A stretch of 63,910 nucleotides of DNA, counting the filler, from Myxococcota bacterium (GTDB taxonomy: Bacteria > Myxococcota > Myxococcia > Myxococcales > Myxococcaceae), in assembly GCA_049322255.1 (NCBI GenBank). It is 18 parts of 18 records of this genome, joined end to end, with 100 filler letters (N's around TTAATTAATTAA, not from the genome) between each part and the next. Parts side by side here need not be neighbours in the genome. Positions count along the whole stretch, not along the records: positions 13,240 to 17,397 come from JBMORE010000012.1; 17 more parts are not named here. One strand, given 5' to 3'. The position numbers and the translations under genes are program-made. Shown here one piece after another: positions 4,387 through 63,910 of the stretch. The notes beneath the pieces are model-generated. The model worked only from the letters and a program-made list of their open reading frames with translations. It had not been told where the DNA came from and searched no databases. Each line of letters opens with the position of its first letter. Position 1 is the first letter of the stretch.

Positions 4387-4486
4387 NNNNNNNNNNNNNN
4401 NNNNNNNNNNNNNNNNNNNNNNNNNNNNNNTTAATTAATTAANNNNNNNNNNNNNNNNNNNNNNNNNNNNNNNNNNNNNNNNNNNN
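4387..4486. other. Artificial contig linker (first of 17)
   Basis: Ns flanking TTAATTAATTAA (stops in all six frames). Others: 8767-8866, 13140-13239, 17398-17497, 21454-21553, 25374-25473, 29266-29365, 32985-33084, 36643-36742, 40211-40310, 43773-43872, 46972-47071, 50019-50118, 53046-53145, 56058-56157, 58865-58964, 61525-61624. Confidence 0.99.
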
Positions 4487-8766: not shown

Positions 8767-8990
8767 NNNNNNNNNNNNNNNNNNNNNNNNNNNNNNNNNN
8801 NNNNNNNNNNTTAATTAATTAANNNNNNNNNNNNNNNNNNNNNNNNNNNNNNNNNNNNNNNNNNNNTCACCGTCACGGTCACCGACTCAGACGGGACGAG
8901 CGCAAGCAATGTGGTGACGCTCGTAGGCGAGTAGGAGCGCTGCAGCAGCTCATCACGCAGCCTGTGTCTGGCCGTCTAGGATGCAGCGTG

Positions 8991-13239: not shown

Positions 13240-13360
13240 ACCTCGCGATGGCGCTGCACGCAAGACTCGGTACCAGCAATGCGTCTTTTGCTGGACGGGC
13301 CTGCCCGCCTGCTTATCGCAGGGCGTTTTCCCGCTGGTCGACGGCAACTTCGTGACGCAC
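13240..13360 (-). mobile_element. Group II intron, 5' end of domain I (copy A)
   Basis: Minus strand reads ...gacgcgccAT|GTGCGTCACG... (GUGYG 5' consensus), then GAGTCTTGCG and CCATC-GCGA-GGT; identical to 58967-59087. Confidence 0.8.
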
Positions 13361-13427
13361 ATGGCGCGTCCATGCCAGCTGTCGGCTGACGGGGCAATCG
13401 TTCGTGAGCAAATTCCGTACGGCCAGC

Positions 13428-13691
13428 ATGAACAAGTCGTCCACGCGCCTGGGCGCCAAAGCCATTGCCTATTTCCGCGACCCCGCCGTCTCGGTGTGGA
13501 AGAAGCTGGTGGGAGCGGCCGCGCTTGCTTACCTGGTGATGCCGCTCGACTTCATTCCCGATGCACCGGTCATCGGCTGGCTCGACGACCTCGGCGTTCT
13601 CTCAGCCGCGGCGTGGTTCATGGTGCGCCAGTTCAACAAGCACGCGGCCAGCGTCGAGTCCCGACACCAGACGCACGAACGCTTGCCCTGA
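13428..13691 (+). CDS. YkvA/DUF1232 family membrane protein
   Basis: ALAYLVMPLDFIPDAPVIGWLDDL. Confidence 0.9.
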   Translation: MNKSSTRLGAKAIAYFRDPAVSVWKKLVGAAALAYLVMPLDFIPDAPVIGWLDDLGVLSAAAWFMVRQFNKHAASVESRHQTHERLP

Positions 13692-13736
13692 ACGGCGCAC
13701 ACCTTTAGGGTCCGCGTCGTTCTTGGAGGAGTCCGC

Positions 13737-14891
13737 ATGCGCTTGCTTGTCCTTTTCGCCGCCGTCGTGCTCACCCTCACCAGTTGCCGCACCCCTGACA
13801 CCCCCAACAAGCCCTCCGACTCGGCGGCCAACCCTGCCAGCACCGAGCCCTTCAACCCGGCGCCTCCCACCCGGCCGACCGAGGCTTTGCCGCCACCCGT
13901 AGTACCGTTGGATGCCGGCGGGCCCGCATTCCCCACGGAGGCATTGCCTTCGGCTCCGCCACTTCCCGCCGTGCCCACGGGCCTGCCGCCGCTGGAGGAG
14001 CCGGCCACCAACCCCACCACTCCCGAGAAGGTGGCGCTGGGCCACCTGCTCTTCTTCGACAAGCGGCTGTCGAAGGACGGCTCGATGGCTTGCGAGGGCT
14101 GTCACCACATCGAACAGGCGTACACCTCCGGCCAGGCGGTGGACGCGAAGGTGGGCGGCGCCAAGAACAAGCGCAACGCTCCCACCGTGGGCAACATCGG
14201 CTACCACGCGAGCTTCTACTGGGACGGGCGCATGCCGACGTTAGAGGCGGTGAGCAATGCGGCGTGGAAGGGCCAGCTGGGCGCCGACCCGGCGACCATC
14301 GCCACCCAGCTCAACGTGCTGCCTGCTTACCGTGCCCACTTCCACCGCGCCTTCGGACAGCAAGCTACCGCGGAGAACATTCCCCAGGCCCTGGCTGCCT
14401 TCCTGCGCGCGCTCAAGAGCGGGGCGGCGCCCTTCGACAAGCTCGAGGCGGGCGATGCGAAAGCGGTGAGCGCCGAGGCCCGGCAGGGCTTCGAGGTGTT
14501 CAAGAACGCTGGCTGCGCGCTGTGCCACGCGCCGCCTTTGTACACCGACCATATGTTCCACAACGTCGGTGTGGGCTGGGACCCGAAGACGAAAAAATTC
14601 TCCGACGAGGGGCAGAAGGACGCGACCAAGGACGAGAAGGACGCCGGCAAGTTCAAGACGCCGCCGTTGCGCGACATCGCCAAGACCGCGCCTTATTTCC
14701 ACGACGGCAGCGCGAAGACCCTCGATGCGGCCATCGACTTCATGCTCAAGGGCGGGGTGAAGAACCCCAACCTCGACGAGAAGCTCAAGCCGCAGAAGCT
14801 CTCCAAGAAAGACCGCGCGGCGCTCGAGGCGTTCCTCCAGTCGCTCTCGGGCGAGTACACCTTCACCAGGGCGCCTGAGCTGCCGAAGTGA
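13737..14891 (+). CDS. Diheme cytochrome c peroxidase/MauG-family lipoprotein
   Basis: Lipobox LTSC; LGHLLFFDKRLS; CEGCH; RNAPT; WDGR; CALCH; FKTPPLR..TAPYFHDGS. Confidence 0.92.
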   Translation: MRLLVLFAAVVLTLTSCRTPDTPNKPSDSAANPASTEPFNPAPPTRPTEALPPPVVPLDAGGPAFPTEALPSAPPLPAVPTGLPPLEEPATNPTTPEKVALGHLLFFDKRLSKDGSMACEGCHHIEQAYTSGQAVDAKVGGAKNKRNAPTVGNIGYHASFYWDGRMPTLEAVSNAAWKGQLGADPATIATQLNVLPAYRAHFHRAFGQQATAENIPQALAAFLRALKSGAAPFDKLEAGDAKAVSAEARQGFEVFKNAGCALCHAPPLYTDHMFHNVGVGWDPKTKKFSDEGQKDATKDEKDAGKFKTPPLRDIAKTAPYFHDGSAKTLDAAIDFMLKGGVKNPNLDEKLKPQKLSKKDRAALEAFLQSLSGEYTFTRAPELPK

Positions 14892-16537
14892 GGTGGCTTT
14901 CCTTGGCCGTGCTCGCGCTGTCGCTCTCGTGCGCGCGCCGCGTTCCGGAGAAGGAGATGGACAGGGCCCGCGTCTACGTCGCCGCGCGGATTCACACGCT
15001 GAATCCGGCCAAGCCCGTGGCCGAGGCAGTGGCAGTACGCAGCGGCAGAGTGGTGGCGGTCGGCACACGGGATGAAGCACTCGCCGCCGTCGATGATGCC
15101 GAAGTCGTCGAGCTGCCCGGCGCGGTGCTGATTCCGGGCTTGGTCGACGCGCACGCTCATCTCGCCTCGCTGGGCCGCGCTCTCTCCATCGCTCGCTTCG
15201 AGGAGACGCGCTCTGCCGCCGAGGTGGTGGAGCGCCTGGGCACCGCCGGCCCGGAGAGCTATCAGGGCGAGTGGCTGGTGGGGCGCGGGTGGGACCAGAA
15301 CGACTGGCCCGGGCAGGCGTTCCCCCACCGCCAGCTGCTCGATGAGAAGTTCCCCACCACACCGGTATTCCTCACCCGTGTCGATGGGCACGCGGTGTGG
15401 GTGAATTCCGAGGCGCTGCGGCGTGCGGGCATCGACCGGACGACCAAGGACCCGGCCGGAGGCCGCATCTTGCGCGACGAGCGAGGCGAGCCCACCGGCG
15501 TCTTGGTGGACAACGCCATCGACCAGGTGTCGGTGAAAGTCCCCGAGCCGACCACCGTACAGCGGCAAAAGCGCCTCAAGGCCGCATTGGAGCGGTGCGC
15601 CGAGGTTGGCCTCACCGCGGTGCACGACGCGGGAATGGACTTGGCCACCTTCACCTTGTTGCAGCAGTGGGACGCCCTCGGCGCGCTTCCGGTGCGGGTG
15701 TACGCGATGGCCGATGGCCAGGGGCCGGACGCCACCTTGTTCCTCGAACGGGGCACCTTCCAGGGACGCCACCTGACGATGCGCGCGGTGAAGTTTTTCG
15801 CCGACGGCGCGCTCGGCTCGCGGGGAGCGGCGCTCCAAGGGCCGTACAGCGACGAGCCAGGACAGCGGGGGTTGCTCCTGGTGGCGCCGGCAGAGCTGGA
15901 GACGCGTGCGCGCCGCTTCGCGGAGGAAGGCTTTCAGGTGGCGGTGCACGCCATCGGCGACCGCGCCAACCACGTGGCTCTCGACGTTCTCGAGCGGCTC
16001 GAGCACGCGCGCCCGGGGAGCAGGCACCGGGTGGAGCACGCCCAGGTGCTCGCCTTCTCCGACGTGCCACGCTTTTCCGCCGCCGGCATCATCGCCAGCA
16101 TGCAGCCCACCCACGCTACCAGCGACATGCCGTGGGCGGAGTCGCGCTTGGGCTCAGAGCGGCTGCGGGGCGCGTATGCGTGGAGGACGCTGCTCGACTC
16201 GGGGGCCAAGTTGGCCTTCGGCAGCGACTTTCCGGTGGAGGACCCCCGACCGCTGCTCGGTCTCTATGCCGCGCGCACCCGGCAGGATGCGGGAGGAAAA
16301 CCGGCGGGCGGCTGGCAGGCACAAGAACGGCTCAGTGGAGAGCAGGCGCTGGAGGCGTTCACCACCGGAGCCGCCTACGCCTCCTTCGCCGAGGAGAGAA
16401 GAGGAGTGCTCAAAGCAGGGATGGACGCCGATTTCGTCGCCCTCGCGGTGGACCCGGTGAATGGGGAGGCAAAGGCGCTCCTTTCGGCGAAGGTGCTGCT
16501 CACCGTGGTCGACGGCCGGGAGGTCTACCGCCCGTAA
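14888..16537 (+). CDS. Amidohydrolase family 3 (YtcJ-like) lipoprotein
   Basis: PGLVDAHAH; GRGWDQN; KFFADGALGSRGA; HAIGDRA; RVEHAQ; SMQPTH; GSDFPV. Confidence 0.92.
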   Translation: MRWLSLAVLALSLSCARRVPEKEMDRARVYVAARIHTLNPAKPVAEAVAVRSGRVVAVGTRDEALAAVDDAEVVELPGAVLIPGLVDAHAHLASLGRALSIARFEETRSAAEVVERLGTAGPESYQGEWLVGRGWDQNDWPGQAFPHRQLLDEKFPTTPVFLTRVDGHAVWVNSEALRRAGIDRTTKDPAGGRILRDERGEPTGVLVDNAIDQVSVKVPEPTTVQRQKRLKAALERCAEVGLTAVHDAGMDLATFTLLQQWDALGALPVRVYAMADGQGPDATLFLERGTFQGRHLTMRAVKFFADGALGSRGAALQGPYSDEPGQRGLLLVAPAELETRARRFAEEGFQVAVHAIGDRANHVALDVLERLEHARPGSRHRVEHAQVLAFSDVPRFSAAGIIASMQPTHATSDMPWAESRLGSERLRGAYAWRTLLDSGAKLAFGSDFPVEDPRPLLGLYAARTRQDAGGKPAGGWQAQERLSGEQALEAFTTGAAYASFAEERRGVLKAGMDADFVALAVDPVNGEAKALLSAKVLLTVVDGREVYRP

Positions 16538-16547
16538 TTCAAGGCGC

Positions 16548-17120
16548 TCACGGGCGCCAGTCCTCCACGACCAACTCGAAGAGGAGATGGTTCCACCATC
16601 GGCCAAAGCGGTGGAAATGGTCGCGCTGCTCCCCCACGAAGCGAAACCCCAGCTTCTCGATGACGCGGCGCGAGGGGTGATTTTCTGTCGCGCAGCACAC
16701 GGTGATTTTGTGTAGGCCCAGGTCCTGGAAGCCGAAGCGAATGGCCTCGCGTGCTGCCTCGGTGATGTAGCCCCGGCCGCGGTGCTCTGCGCCGCACCAG
16801 TAGCCCAGCTCGGCGCGGTCTTGGCGCCACGCGCGAACGGTGCGCACGACCTCGTGAAGTCCCACCAGGCCGCAAAGCACCTCCTGGCGGTGGAACGCCC
16901 AGACGTAGCCCGTTCCCGCCTGCCGTGCGGCGACGACCCCCTCCACGAACTGCACCGTCTCGCTTCGGTCCCGGTGGGCCTCCCAAGTCATGAGCTTGGG
17001 CAGCTCGGGATCCGAAACGTACGGCCAGAGGGCATCCACGTGGCTTATGTGAAGAGGCCTCAGCTCGAGCCGATTCGTTCGCAGCGTGCGGTCCAACTCT
17101 TCGCAAGGGGGCGTCGGCAT
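16548..17120 (-). CDS. GNAT N-acetyltransferase (RimJ/RimL family)
   Basis: LRTNRLELRPL; AELGYW...RGRGYITEA; NHPSRRVIEKLGF. Confidence 0.9.
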   Translation of the reverse strand: MPTPPCEELDRTLRTNRLELRPLHISHVDALWPYVSDPELPKLMTWEAHRDRSETVQFVEGVVAARQAGTGYVWAFHRQEVLCGLVGLHEVVRTVRAWRQDRAELGYWCGAEHRGRGYITEAAREAIRFGFQDLGLHKITVCCATENHPSRRVIEKLGFRFVGEQRDHFHRFGRWWNHLLFELVVEDWRP

Positions 17121-17239
17121 GTCCGACGTCTACAACGATGGCGCGCGGTCGACGAGCCAACCGCTGGTCATCGCCAGGCGTGAAGCAGATCCACCTTGAC
17201 GTTCTTTCCGACGAGTCTTAAGTCAGCCCCGCTTTTCCC

Positions 17240-17312
<73 letters not shown>

Positions 17313-17497
17313 CTCATTCGGCGAGTCAGGTGGGCGACAGCAAGCCATTTGTTTGTCGAAACTGTCTGCCTGCCGGCGTCAGTATGCTGCGCTACTTNNN
17401 NNNNNNNNNNNNNNNNNNNNNNNNNNNNNNNNNNNNNNNNNTTAATTAATTAANNNNNNNNNNNNNNNNNNNNNNNNNNNNNNNNNNNNNNNNNNNN

Positions 17498-23879: not shown

Positions 23880-25373
23880 ATGGACCGTCGAATTTTGGCT
23901 GCTGGGTGGGTGCTCCTCGCGGCGCTGGCCGCTTGCGAAAACTTCCAGAAGCTCCGGGAGGAGTACTGCGCGACGACGGGGGCGACGACCGACGCATGCG
24001 TCAGGGACACCGATCCGCCTCTGCCGCCGGTGTTGGTGGCGCCTGCCTCTCCGGCGAACGACAACAACCCTTCGGTGACCGGCACCGCCGAGGCCGGGTC
24101 GACGATTCGCCTCTACGCGAGCGCCGATTGCGCAGGCGAGGTGTCCGGAACCGGGGTGGTGACGCCCTCGGGGGCTTTCGCGGTGGCTGTCACCGTGGGC
24201 GATGACACCACCACGAGCTTCTCGGCCACGGCGACGGACGCCGCCGGCAACGTGTCGGGTTGTTCTGCCAGCGTCACCTATGTGGAGGACAGCACGCCGC
24301 CCGTGGTGCCGGCATTGGCAGGTTCGGTGCCCATGCCTCCGGCGAACGACAACAACCCGAGCATCTTCGGGACGGCGGAGCCCGGTTCGACCATTCGGTT
24401 GTACACCGACTGCGCGGGTGCGGAGGCGGTCAGCGGCTCGGTGGACCCCGATGGCTCGTTCAGCATCGTCGTCAGCGTCGGCGACAACACCACGACCACC
24501 TTCTTCGCGCGGGCGGAGGACGCAGCGGGCAATCGCTCCGAGTGCTCCCAGGGCTTCGTCTACGTGGAGAACAGCCAGCTGCCGGTGGCGCCGCAGTTGA
24601 CAGGAACGTCTCCCGCCTCCCCGGCGAACGAAAACAACCCGTCGGTCGCGGGAACCGCCGAGGCGGGAACCACCGTTCGCCTCTACACCACGTCGAATTG
24701 CTCGGGGGCCGTCGCGGGGATGGGGAACGTCGATGGAGCGGGAGCGTTCAGCATCTCCGTGAGCGTGGCCGACAACTCCAGCACCACCTTCTACGCCACG
24801 GCGACCAACACGCTGAGCCTCACCTCCGCCTGCTCCACCGGGCTTCTCTACGTGGAGGACAGTCAACCGCCGGTGTTGACGGTGTCGGGAACCGTTCCCG
24901 CCTCCCCCGCCAACAGCAACAACCCCAGCGTGACGGGGATGACGGAAGGGGCCGCGACGGTCCGGGTCTTCACCAACAACAATTGTGGTGGGGCCGCCGT
25001 GGGGGTCGCGGTCGCCGCCGCCAGCGGAGAGTTCTTCGTTCCGGTGAGCGTGGGCGACAACAGCAGCACGAGCTTTTACGGCCAGGCGGAGGACGCCGCC
25101 GGCAACCGCTCGAGCTGCACGGGCCCCGTCACCTACGCGGAGGACAGCATTCCGCCCTCGGCCACCGGAGCTTCGGTGAGCGATGGCGTGGCGCCGGCGG
25201 AAATCGACTATCAGCAGACCGTCGCGACGGTGGATGCATACTGGTCGGGCTTCACCAATGGCGTGGCTGCGTACGAGTACAACCTGAGCACCTCGACGGG
25301 TTGCGCAGGCGAAGCCATCGCGACGATGAACGTTGGAAACGTCATTGCGAAATCCACCTCCGGGCTGACGCTC
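23880..25373 (+). CDS. Lipoprotein with 4 tandem Ig-like repeats (3'-truncated)
   Basis: Lipobox LAAC; four ~96-aa repeats 'PAN.NNPSV.GTAE.G.T.RLY...C.G...DAAGN.S.CS...YVED'. Confidence 0.8.
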
Positions 25374-29365: not shown

Positions 29366-29439
29366 TGAGCTCCCACGCCAAGCCGCGTTTGCTCAGCTCG
29401 GCGCTGTAGATGGAATCTGCCCGCATGAGGCGAGACACC
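29366..29439 (-). repeat. 74-bp direct-repeat copy of the 3' part of the ClC gene (30624-30697)
   Basis: 70/74 identical; 3 synonymous changes and 1 Thr>Ala; reads VSRLMRADSIYSAELSKRGLAWEL; extends to the contig edge. Confidence 0.9.
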
Positions 29440-29498
29440 GCGGAGCTGACTTGGGGGCCGGACTGAGCGCAACGACTTGCCGTTGAGCTTCCAAGTGC

Positions 29499-30507: not shown

Positions 30508-31944
30508 CTATTGGCCCGGCGAGCGGTCGTTTCCTGGGGTCGCGCTGGGCGCTAACGCCGGCAGAGCGCCTTCACCGAGCGGCGGGGGTGTTTGCCCGTT
30601 GAAGACACGCCGCCCCTCCAGGGTGAGCTCCCACGTCAAGCCACGTTTGCTCAGCTCGGCGCTATAGATGGAGTCTGCCCGCATGAGGCGAGACACCAGG
30701 GTGGCGACGCCGGTGGCGAGCAAGAGCGGAACGACAATCGCGTAGTCACCCGAGAGCTCGAAGACGAGCACGGCGGCCATCATCGGTGCGTGCGTCGTCG
30801 CCGCGGTCATCGCCGCCATCCCCACCAGCGCGTAGGCTCCCGGGCCCCCCAGGGGAGAGGTGCCCAAAAGCGCCGCGAGCACCTGCTGAAAACAAATGCC
30901 TACCGCGGCCCCCAGGAACAAGGTGGGGGTGAACACGCCTCCCGGGCTGCCGGAGGACACGGAGGCAGTGGTGGCGAAGGATTTGGCCGCCAAGAGCCAC
31001 ACCACCACTCCCAGCGGAATCGCCCCGTCGAGCATCGCGTTCAGTGGCTCGTACCCGTTGCCGGTGACCTGCGGAAGCCAGATGGCCACCACGCCGACGA
31101 GAAGCCCCCCGAGCGCGGCGCGCCACGGCTGCGGCAGGCGCGACCGGTCGAAGAGGCTCTCACCCGCCGACAAGAGCCGCATGAAGCCCTGGGCGGCGAG
31201 CGCAGCGACCAGGCCGAGCAGCGCGTACCCGAGAAGCTCCCCGGAGCCGACCAGGCTGAAGGTGCGCTGCCCGTAAATGGGCCCTCCCCCCACCACGGCC
31301 TTGGTCATCGCCGTCGCCAGGGCGGTGGCGACCACGGTGCTCAAGACGGCGTCCATGGCGACGATGCCGGTGACGACCTCGAGGACGAAGAGAATCGCCG
31401 CCAGCGGAGTGTTGTACGCCGCGGCGAACCCGGCGGCAGTCCCCGCGGCCATCAAGGCGCGCGCGCGGTTCTCGTCCACTCCGAAGAGGCGGCCGGCGAC
31501 ACCTCCCAAGGCGCCGCCGAATTGGATGAGCGGCCCCTCTCGACCGACGGAGCCGCCGGTGACGATGGCGAACCAAGAACCCACCGACTTGAGCAACGTG
31601 GTGCCCATGGAGAGCCGCACCCGGCCGAACACCACCGCCTCCATGACGTCGCCCACCCCTTGTCCTCGTCCGACCCGCGCCATCACCAGCGCCGCCCCGC
31701 CCGCGAGTAGCCCTCCGAAGGCGGGGAGCAGCAGCCGCAGCGCGACCGGCAGCCTCTGGAACATGGACACCACGTCTGCAGCGCCCGAGCTCACGCTGAA
31801 GGCAAGGCTCAACAGCCAGCGGAAAGCGATGGCGAACAGCGCAGCTCCCAACGCGACCGTCAGGAGCGCACAGAAGTAGCGGAAGGCCGCGCGTGCTCGA
31901 AGGGCCACCGAAAGCGCACCCGCAAGGGAAGAAGGTTCCACCAA
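30508..31944 (-). CDS. ClC-family chloride channel / Cl-/H+ antiporter
   Basis: GGSVGREGP (gating Glu); FVLEV; GGVFTPTLFLG; THAPM..AVLVFELSG; no CBS domains. Confidence 0.92.
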   Translation of the reverse strand: MVEPSSLAGALSVALRARAAFRYFCALLTVALGAALFAIAFRWLLSLAFSVSSGAADVVSMFQRLPVALRLLLPAFGGLLAGGAALVMARVGRGQGVGDVMEAVVFGRVRLSMGTTLLKSVGSWFAIVTGGSVGREGPLIQFGGALGGVAGRLFGVDENRARALMAAGTAAGFAAAYNTPLAAILFVLEVVTGIVAMDAVLSTVVATALATAMTKAVVGGGPIYGQRTFSLVGSGELLGYALLGLVAALAAQGFMRLLSAGESLFDRSRLPQPWRAALGGLLVGVVAIWLPQVTGNGYEPLNAMLDGAIPLGVVVWLLAAKSFATTASVSSGSPGGVFTPTLFLGAAVGICFQQVLAALLGTSPLGGPGAYALVGMAAMTAATTHAPMMAAVLVFELSGDYAIVVPLLLATGVATLVSRLMRADSIYSAELSKRGLTWELTLEGRRVFNGQTPPPLGEGALPALAPSATPGNDRSPGQ

Positions 31945-56157: not shown

Positions 56158-57718
<1,561 letters not shown>

Positions 57719-58964: not shown

Positions 58965-59087
58965 CCACCTCGCGATGGCGCTGCACGCAAGACTCGGTAC
59001 CAGCAATGCGTCTTTTGCTGGACGGGCCTGCCCGCCTGCTTATCGCAGGGCGTTTTCCCGCTGGTCGACGGCAACTTCGTGACGCAC
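58965..59087 (-). mobile_element. Group II intron, 5' end of domain I (copy B)
   Basis: Minus strand ...gtcgctccAT|GTGCGTCACG...; identical to copy A over 13240-13364 vs 58967-59091; flanks diverge beyond CGC(G/T)CCAT. Confidence 0.8.
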
Positions 59088-59183
59088 ATGGAGCGACACC
59101 CTACGGCACTCGCGTCCCCTCCGCGACGGCCAGTTTTTTGACCGCAGGGCCAGGTGGCTACAGCCTTGTGGCAGGAGGTGTCC

Positions 59184-59636
59184 ATGCGCGAGACGAGGGA
59201 ACGCCGCTACACCCCACGCGAGCCGCTCTTTCAGGGCCGCCGCCGGTACCCACGCGTCTTTCTCGATCTCGACTGGTTCCTCGAATCAGAAGGCTGCTCG
59301 ACCCTGGGCCGCGGCCTGGAGGTCTCCTTGCGCGGCGCGCTCTTGCCCGTGGCGCGTACGGGCAACCTCACCGCCGCCGTTACCCTCTACCTCTCCCTCC
59401 CGGCGCGCCCGCGGATGTTCAAGGCCAAGGGGCGTGCGGTGCCCCGACAAGGACCCACCGGCTGGGTGATTCAGTTCAGCGACGTCGAAGACGAGGATTT
59501 GCGCCTTTTGGGCGAGACGCTTCTGGAAGAGTACGGGCTTTCCGCTCTTCCGGGATTGGATCGGAAGTACGAGCGCTTCGTCGGCCTACACCGCCGGTAT
59601 TTGCGCTCCTCGCTGTCACCTTCGGCTCCAAGGTAG
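59184..59636 (+). CDS. PilZ-domain protein
   Basis: RBS AGGAGGT; RRYPR; EVSLRG (variant of D/NxSxxG). Confidence 0.7.
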   Translation: MRETRERRYTPREPLFQGRRRYPRVFLDLDWFLESEGCSTLGRGLEVSLRGALLPVARTGNLTAAVTLYLSLPARPRMFKAKGRAVPRQGPTGWVIQFSDVEDEDLRLLGETLLEEYGLSALPGLDRKYERFVGLHRRYLRSSLSPSAPR

Positions 59637-63256: not shown

Positions 63257-63785
63257 TCAACTGCCGGCCCGCACCACCTCGGCGATGAAGCGGTTGAGCA
63301 CCGGCAGCTCGCCGTCGAGGATCTTCAACCCCTCGCTCTGAATGACTTTCTCGCCGATCATCGCCAGCGGCTTGAGCAGGAAGGGCAACTTGAGCGAAAT
63401 CTCCCCGTCCATCGCGCGTTCGGTCTGCCCGTTGCCCAGGTCGCGCAGGCGCAAGGTGCCGGTGTTCACCAAGAGGTTACTGATCTTGTTCGAGGTGGGG
63501 ACGTTGGAGAAACGCAGCTCCTTCTTCCCCTTGTCGTAGGTCGAGGTCTCGACGAAGGCGAACCACTCGGGGGGAACCGGTTTGGGCCCGATGGAGGCGA
63601 TGACCGGTCTGGGGCGGTAGCGCACCTTGCGGCGCACAGTGCTCCCCTCGTCCTTCTTTTCCAGCTGCTGCACCTCCAAGAGCACGCCGTGGTGCTGGAG
63701 CAAGAAGGCCAGGTACCGCTCGTCGAGGAGCGCCTTCTCCACTTCCTCCACCGTTCCTTGAATGCGCTGCCGAGTTTCGAACCTC

Positions 63786-63787
<2 letters not shown>
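63257..63787 (-). CDS. DUF2505/SRPBCC-like protein whose start codon is split by a group II intron (AT|G)
   Basis: MRFETRQRIQGTVEEVEKALLDERY...GEISLKLPF...IGEKVI; the ORF-track extension MAAEAYL is intron domain VI. Confidence 0.7.

Positions 63788-63910
<123 letters not shown>

Follow-up and report, generated by a model that had tools for sequence, protein, structure and literature searches.

A multi-copy group II intron of a Myxococcota genome that splits the start codons of mostly leaderless-looking genes

Two identical stretches of 125 nt stand in different flanks of a 63,910-nt window (the whole stretch of DNA analysed, filler included) from a Myxococcota genome, GenBank assembly GCA_049322255.1, and an earlier note on this DNA had read them as the 5′ ends of a group II intron with relaxed specificity, inserted where a gene would start. 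The question that they raise is what element they belong to, and what the places at which it is found have in common. Our answer, which comparison of sequences makes quite likely, is a multi-copy intron that lacks an endonuclease (En) domain and splits the start codons of mostly leaderless genes, and through which a leader frame, the frame for its intron-encoded protein (IEP) and that of the host gene appear to be linked in a relay.

Two contig-edge repeats and the intron behind them

The identity of positions 13240-13364 and 58967-59091 over 125 nt holds, and it ends at 13365 and 59092, respectively. The window is no single chromosomal stretch: it is made up of 18 contigs, which range from 4386 to 2286 nt and are separated by spacers of 100 nt (N..TTAATTAATTAA..N). 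Each of the two copies opens a contig, with copy A at the start of contig C12 (window positions 13240-17397) and copy B at the start of C65 (58965-61524). Since both stretches lie at contig edges, the apparent repeat length of about 125-127 nt is set by the assembly break and not by the size of the element, and we infer that it is the remnant left when an assembler breaks at a repeat. Read on the minus strand, the intron begins at base 13360 in copy A and at base 59087 in copy B, so the shared 125-mer comprises 121 intron bases and the exon bases CCAT. The proposed minus-strand junction ...CCAT^GTGCGTCACG... (with ^ marking the splice junction here and below) is confirmed, and both GAGTCTTGCG and the hairpin CCATC-GCGA-GGTGG are there as well, aligning to the Rfam model RF02005. 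Copy A (13240-13360, minus strand) holds the first 121 nt of the intron, with the 5′ GTGCG and the start of domain I, and is 100% identical to nt 2-122 of the public contig L012 introduced below; copy B (58965-59087, minus strand) holds the first 123 nt, and both are cut by the contig edge. The frame that had been seen to run without a stop up to that edge is real, and weak evidence on its own (40 codons at 66% GC).

In a search of the whole assembly (4.85 Mb, 196 contigs), the interior of the intron was found on no contig: the reverse transcriptase (RT) family RVT_1 was matched only on C187, in a 3′ part of 780 nt that lies at a contig end, and on C73, whose copy is internally deleted, with the 5′ ~125 nt joined straight to the second half of the RT gene. 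The genome has two further 5′ ends, on C171 (100% identical, at a contig end) and on C73 (90% identical), and five matches to domains V/VI (RF00029), on C76, C187, C73, C101 and C35. The one on C76, the last contig of the window, belongs to the 3′ end of another intron copy (63786-63910, minus strand), with the tail of the RT frame and with domains V/VI at 63786-63864 (54.1 bits; gathering score 40).

The interior itself is given by L012, a public contig of 1932 nt that runs from T^GTGCG to ...CTTGAT^G. Over its first 124 nt it is 100% identical to the window copies, its 3′ end is the same as those on C101 and C35, and contigs (X1) from the one public run with the window's DNA cover its positions 1-1932, the main pieces (552, 257, 184, 362 and 354 nt) with 0 mismatches, so L012 represents the interior of this genome's intron. 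Word depth in X1 is 283-336 for the main variant and 45-64 for minor, ~90% identical variants, a ratio that serves as a rough hint of several copies. L012 carries the label of a Pseudomonadota metagenome-assembled genome (MAG) and consists of precisely one copy of the intron with the invariant T and G on either side; it looks like a contig into which a repeat has collapsed and which was binned apart from its host genome.

Extended in this way, the element is the multi-copy group II intron that had been proposed, with an RT open reading frame (ORF) and domains V/VI and with no transposase. The full RF02005 model (group-II-D1D4-6; gathering score 49) is matched in L012 (93.8 bits) and in a second full-length copy, L013 (98.7 bits), the match in L012 beginning at nt 58 and covering the part homologous to copy A. 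The IEP matches the group II RT/maturase family TIGR04416 of NCBIfam at 309.1 bits (cut-off 300) and has the YADD active site (RYADDAVFVF in translations); in Pfam it matches RVT_1 alone (E=9.1e-36), with neither an endonuclease domain nor GIIM detected. Aligned to RF00029, domain VI shows UAAG/CUUG as its basal stem, with a bulged A at -7 and AU at the end, which fixes the 3′ splice site after ...CUUGAU. Mobile group II introns have the boundaries 5′ GUGYG and 3′ AY and a bulged branch A 7-8 nt from the 3′ end, and this intron agrees with them. Total intron length is 1930-1966 nt, and the 5′ end reads GTGCG in 10 of 11 copies and GCGCG in L169, a metagenome contig, where the copy may be inactive or the variant tolerated. 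The two window stretches are the 5′ ends of separate copies of one group II intron of ~1930 nt, and the assembly broke at each copy.

Start codons as insertion sites

Junctions were gathered for the clade of introns whose IEPs are at least about 64% identical, from the genome's own contigs, from named genome contigs, from 401 genomes of the phylum (12 of which, this genome counted, match at E<=1e-80) and from a metagenome scan (120 matches, 80 loci fetched, the clade's 3′ end in 9 of the 80). All 11 of the 5′ exons end in AT and all 22 of the 3′ exons open with G, so that each site has an ATG cut between its T and its G. Nine of the 11 5′ exons have C at position -3 and the other 2 have G, and -4 and beyond are free. 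Of the earlier note's CCATG-centred specificity, only A(-2), T(-1) and G(+1) are thus invariant, while its expectation that 3′ exons begin with G in frame with a gene agrees with what we find, since G is universal and most of the 22 run in frame into a gene. In the window, the 5′ exon of copy A (13361-13427, minus strand) comprises the AT of the split start codon (13362, 13361) and 65 nt of intergenic DNA; that of copy B (59088-59183, minus strand) comprises the AT (59089, 59088) and intergenic DNA up to a divergent PilZ-like gene. For the copy on C76, the last intron base is 63786, in the junction ...CCTACTTGAT^G, and the ATG rebuilt over it (A at 63787 and T at 63786 in the intron, G at 63785 the first exon base) opens a DUF2505-like ORF of 176 amino acids (63257-63787, minus strand; Pfam PF10698), residues 6-137 of which match profile positions 3-131 at 26.0 bits, compared with a cut-off of 26.9.

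Across the clade, the rebuilt ATG opens a frame of 63 codons or more, or one that reaches a contig end still open at no fewer than 93 codons, in 18 of 22 cases, and in two more the frame is cut by a contig end, at 27 and 21 codons. Although 18 of 20 rebuilt ATGs with at least 63 codons gives a binomial p of about 8e-5, ORF length is weak evidence for a gene start, because long open frames are common at this GC content. Stronger evidence comes from N-terminal register: 12 of 20 scanned downstream ORFs match Pfam families, and all do so in register from the N-terminus, with ORF residues 3-132 on profile positions 1-130 for DivIVA, and matches that begin at residue 8 on position 4 for NmrA, 13 on 2 for RNase_T, 6 on 3 for DUF2505, 5 on 1 for a zinc ribbon and 27 on 1 for TldD domain 1; in secreted enzymes among these ORFs, the Pfam match begins after the signal peptide. 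At each site, the interrupted ATG starts a different gene. Copies of the intron break short-read assemblies right at gene starts, leaving genes at contig edges that look truncated at the 5′ end.

Pairing between intron and 5′ exon is short. The clade's exon-binding site 1 (EBS1) was placed by complementarity in relatives with ~40% identical IEPs and ordinary, longer targets, in which a segment at about intron positions 222-240 is complementary to each differing 5′ exon (TGAACG/CGTTCA, TCAAGA/TCTTGA, ACGAGT/ACTCGT and CAGGAAG/CTTCCTG). The homologous loop in the clade reads UAUGA(C/G)(C/G) in four aligned variants, and its UAUGA(C/G) can pair with only 3-5 exon bases, (N)(C/G)AU, so base pairing alone cannot explain the restriction to gene starts. 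Another loop, GGCAUGUGCAGAAGGCC (about nt 305-321 of L012), which holds CAUG, was ruled out as EBS1/delta because relatives whose 5′ exons differ widely retain its GGCAYG element.

Among Myxococcota genomes, L062-L074, which have ~40% identical IEPs and the same RF02005 ribozyme type, show ordinary junctions (...TTGA^GTGCGCC and ...GTTCA^GTGCGCC, with the 3′ end CTACCCGAC^), so start-codon targeting is confined to one sub-clade. Two copies in one of these genomes have a common 12-nt 5′ exon, GGTAACCGTTCA, and in L063 intron positions 239-253 are complementary, unbroken, to the final 15 nt of the 5′ exon, an unusually long single stretch of pairing. More distant introns with 34-43% identical IEPs, L014-L055 (mostly from Verrucomicrobiota MAGs), have the 3′ end ...CCTACCT(T/C)(A/G)AT^ and 5′ exons ...ACGTT^ or ...CTGTT^. 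An ORF-opening ATG lies -2 to 37 nt downstream of their 3′ junction in 20 of 29, often followed by a signal peptide, and in L030 and L033 the junction itself makes the ATG; these introns may have a related habit of sitting just upstream of a start.

What most sites of the clade share, besides the ATG, is a -10-like box. An exact TANNNT lies 6-8 nt upstream of the A of the ATG in 5 of the 11 5′ exons, compared with 702 of 87208 genome ATGs (0.80%; p=1.5e-8), and an exact or near -10-like box is found in 10 of the 11, compared with a background of 16.5% (p=1.4e-7); in copy B it is TAGGGT (59098-59103 on the plus strand), 8 nt upstream of the A. This is the spacing expected when transcription starts at the A of the ATG, as in a leaderless gene. 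The targets look like mostly leaderless genes, and the start codon of such genes is a better description of the target than CCATG. A sigma-70 consensus scan of 59085-59260, which demands both hexamers, returned 0 sites. A hairpin target in the manner of class C (IIC) introns was also considered and rejected, with a mean folding energy of -6.0 kcal/mol for the last 45 nt of 10 5′ exons and -6.3 for 400 random genome pieces (p=0.6).

The earlier note had suggested that host translation signals lead into the intron, and one way in which this could work is that the intron targets starts preceded by a Shine-Dalgarno (SD) sequence, with the host SD driving translation inward. The site on C171, where GAGG stands at a 4-nt gap from the ATG, would suit such a scheme, as would the strong SD, GGAGCGAAGGAGG, that precedes the intron's own IEP start. 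Yet an SD-like 4-mer occurs in the last 20 nt of just one of the 11 5′ exons, that of C171, against a -10-like box at leaderless spacing in 10 of 11, and we hold targeting of SD-led starts to be very unlikely. With a start codon at every site and, at most of them, a TANNNT-like box 6-8 nt upstream, the host translation signal is probably a leaderless, 5′-terminal AUG instead.

On C35, the orphan 3′ end is followed by an ORF of 217 aa, and in each of the 9 loci from relatives listed for the copy-B flank this ORF adjoins, divergently, the homolog of that flank; C65 (5′ exon) and C35 (3′ exon) are accordingly the opposite sides of a single insertion. The uninterrupted ortholog of the C35 ORF in L087 starts 29 residues before the conserved FGGVVAPAVLP, the same as the rebuilt ORF, and the GCCGTAGGGTG motif stands before the ATG of the uninterrupted ortholog in L091 and L088, as on C65. 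Synteny could thus link a 5′ end to its 3′ exon, as the earlier note had wished, for copy B and not for copy A: no 3′-exon ORF was found beside YkvA homologs in 10 regions, except weak matches to M16 paralogs, and among 11 loci with orthologs of the C101 gene, none had an ORF of the C12 or C171 flank next to it.

These orthologs bear on whether TANNNT is instead a DNA motif that the intron's ribonucleoprotein (RNP) reads as part of its target, whether or not the genes are leaderless. The tight position of the box relative to the insertion point (6-8 nt) would fit such a motif, and passages of PMC12584367 describe contacts of group II IEPs with distal 5′-exon DNA. However, the box also precedes the ATG of uninterrupted orthologs in other genera (TAGAAT-8-ATG in L087, TAGGGT-6-ATG in L091) and is accordingly a property of the genes, and we consider a motif of the RNP's own unlikely as the explanation, noting that it and leaderless targeting are not mutually exclusive.

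The same junctions can be set against an ordinary homing intron with a short target around CCATG, whose link to gene starts would come from chance or from purifying selection after random insertion. Its short pairing between EBS1 and intron-binding site 1 (IBS1), the C at -3 in 9 of 11 sites and the many ATGs that open long frames in a 66% GC genome all suit this account. It is nevertheless quite improbable in our judgement, given that all 22 3′ exons start at an ATG with 12 of 20 ORFs matched by Pfam in N-terminal register, that TANNNT at 6-8 nt is enriched as described, and that none of the copies seen lay at an intergenic or internal CATG, although neutral insertions ought to survive there.

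Reading frames through the intron

Frames were examined in seven full-length copies, which represent five sequence variants (71-85% identical in the ribozyme part, for the four variants aligned). The frame opened by AT^G, to which the earlier note had drawn attention, is long and stop-free in four of the five variants and meets an early stop in L013. From the host ATG, the leader frame runs without a stop for 166 codons in L012, 172 in L059 and 178 in L131/151/153, and in each of these variants it ends at a TGA that overlaps the GTG of the IEP (GTGA), with GGAGCGAAGG(A/G)GG before the GTG. The distances from the 5′ splice site to the IEP GTG in the four open-frame variants (496, 514, 529 and 532 nt) are all 1 mod 3, and stops are scarce in the leader frame compared with the other two frames, with 0 vs. 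5 and 7 in L012, 0 vs. 6 and 6 in L059, 1 vs. 5 and 7 in L168, and the terminal stop only vs. 9 and 3 in L131. An exon-fused RT, the other product that had been envisaged, does not emerge from these frames, because the leader stop overlaps the RT's own GTG in L012, L059 and L131/151/153, comes before it in L168 and falls early in L013.

At the other end of the intron, the IEP frame runs through domains V/VI—which encode the tail of the IEP ORF, in the absence of an endonuclease domain—and stops at T(G/A)A one base before the intron end in all seven full-length copies, such that this stop overlaps the rebuilt host ATG as TGATG or TAATG. Between the domain V anchor and the 3′ end lie 75, 78, 81 or 84 nt, in steps of three, in 14 of 15 distinct variants, the exception being L057 with 83 nt, where the match covers only IEP residues 223-252. 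This period of three in the length of domain VI is unexplained by RNA pairing. In 11 of 16 variants, GAGG precedes the rebuilt ATG by 8 nt.

Taken together with the target sites, these frames suggest how the intron could live within start codons. The host transcript would start at the A of the ATG, leaving AU as the only 5′ exon in RNA, and after insertion the transcript would still open with AUG (AU plus the intron's G) and remain a leaderless message. Ribosomes would read the leader of 166-178 codons across ribozyme domains I-III and stop at the UGA that overlaps the GUG of the IEP; the IEP frame would pass through domains V/VI and stop at the U(G/A)A that overlaps the rebuilt host AUG, which in most variants has GAGG 8 nt before it. 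Unspliced RNA would in this way act as a relay of three coupled ORFs (leader, IEP and host gene) from which the host protein is still made, while splicing would restore the original leaderless mRNA. The RNP would reverse-splice into other AT^G sites at gene starts, with specificity beyond base pairing supplied, perhaps, by the -10 element or by promoter DNA that RNA polymerase has opened.

In its full form—a lineage that targets the combined transcription and translation start of leaderless genes, with a pppAU exon, recognition of the -10 element or open promoter, and a three-ORF relay with overlapping stops and starts—the model is one that we propose tentatively, and with more doubt than confidence. 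If it is true, an unspliced copy neither silences its host gene nor leaves its RT untranslated, and the start codon joins homing sites, terminators and attC sites as a fourth target choice of bacterial group II introns. It also raises the questions of how an RNP recognises a gene start, and of whether the overlapping chain of frames, and not splicing alone, lets the intron be tolerated and express its enzyme.

Several observations weigh against start-codon targeting of leaderless genes coupled to such a relay. As regards gene starts, 47% of random ATGs in this 66% GC genome open at least 63 codons, the rebuilt ATGs of L151 and L059 (2 of 22) open only 19 codons, and the exon at L048 4293-4481 resembles the UvrA N-terminus for ~30 residues (..NLKNISLDIPR..) before it diverges and stops at 63 aa, which suggests that the target gene there is rearranged or decayed. 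Among the 11 5′ exons, copy A on C12 is the sole one without a -10-like box, and the GAGG of C171 begins 8 nt before the A of its ATG, at the 4-nt gap mentioned above. As regards the frames, the leader of L168 (166 codons) stops 30 nt before the IEP GTG, and in L013 the leader stops at codon 85, has 4 leader-frame stops and is out of register (534 nt), while the IEP frame is intact, from which it follows that the leader is dispensable at least in L013. The variants are related, and frame statistics overstate their independence; the alternation of TGA and TAA was discounted as proof of a conserved stop, the alternating base being one that pairs with U in the domain VI stem. As regards mechanism, ribosomes that cross domains I-VI should hinder folding of the ribozyme, a cost for which the model does not account, and a 2-nt 5′ exon in RNA would bind EBS1 very weakly. 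Leaderlessness and translational coupling are both read from the sequence.

Flanking features and comparison with known introns

The gene that flanks copy A, divergent from the interrupted gene, is of the DUF1232 (YkvA) type (13428-13691, plus strand; Pfam PF06803, 47.3 bits), as the earlier note had it; its pilZ assignment beside copy B is less secure, with the PilZ-like gene at 59184-59636, also on the plus strand, matching PF07238 at 22.0 bits, below the cut-off of 22.5. A tRNA gene lies at 17240-17312, near the end of contig C12 (RF00005, 71.2 bits). The largest "repeat families" returned by a repeat finder are the spacers between contigs (4387-4486, 8767-8866 and 15 more), which are artificial and not biology. 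Other repeats in the window include an 85-nt direct repeat at 29366-29450 and 30624-30708 (89% identity, the first copy opening a contig), which may represent a further multi-copy element or the end of a paralogous gene; a ~114-nt unit in four copies at 24189-25157 (spacing 282-288 nt, 63-75% identity), probably a repeated protein domain; and a 15-nt unit (TCTCCGCGGCGGCCT-like) in about six tandem copies at 56158-56255, at a contig start.

Insertion at start codons has a precedent. According to passages of PMC12584367, a specialised IIB1/CL1 lineage inserts within or next to start or stop codons by a colonisation route that is stated to be unknown there; its members have a CL1 RT with an endonuclease domain and a subdomain Ia of 300-700 nt, and those studied home to groEL (Avi.groEL, EcKTE56.groEL). 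The intron described here resembles that lineage in its position within the initiation codon (AT^G in 11 of 11 5′ and 22 of 22 3′ junctions), and might for this reason be taken for one of its members. In contrast to them, it has Pfam RVT_1 only and no En domain; the 57 nt before the RF02005 match in L012, in a total of 1930 nt, leave no room for a large subdomain Ia; its closest solved IEPs are of IIC type (~148 bits), ahead of the CL-type 6me0 (120.9 bits); and one variant sits in many unrelated genes of one genome. We regard membership of the IIB1/CL1 lineage as extremely improbable.

Class C introns are closer in several respects: they likewise have no En domain and very short EBS1-IBS1 pairing (3-5 bp here), they include the closest solved IEPs, and they occupy many unrelated sites that are set by a generic genomic feature instead of a long sequence. 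Unlike this intron, which sits at gene starts with no enrichment of hairpins in its 5′ exons and whose ribozyme matches RF02005, IIC introns insert after terminator or attC hairpins. For the reading frames, a parallel is offered by the yeast mitochondrial introns aI1 and aI2, organellar group II introns in which the upstream exon and the IEP ORF share one frame. In them, as in the model proposed here, translation enters the intron's coding region from the initiation site of the host gene; the difference is that here a separate leader ends at a stop overlapping the IEP start, and that the host start codon itself is split.

By description, the intron also resembles En-less varieties around the former class F (g2), which, according to Toro and Martinez-Abarca 2013 (PMC3552965), include the Myxococcus intron M.xa.I1 and IEPs from Myxococcota and other phyla; the likeness is that of an En-less Myxococcota IEP. 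In the literature searched, including passages of PMC7306698 and PMC4424553, we found no description of leaderless or general start-codon targeting beyond the IIB1/CL1 lineage. As set out in the sections of a 2015 review that treat target choice (PMC4424553), bacterial group II introns choose their targets in three ways, namely by long homing sites, by terminator hairpins and by attC sites; landing in the start codons of many unrelated genes that look leaderless, with 3-5 bp of pairing, would, if the present reading is true, be a further strategy beside these three.
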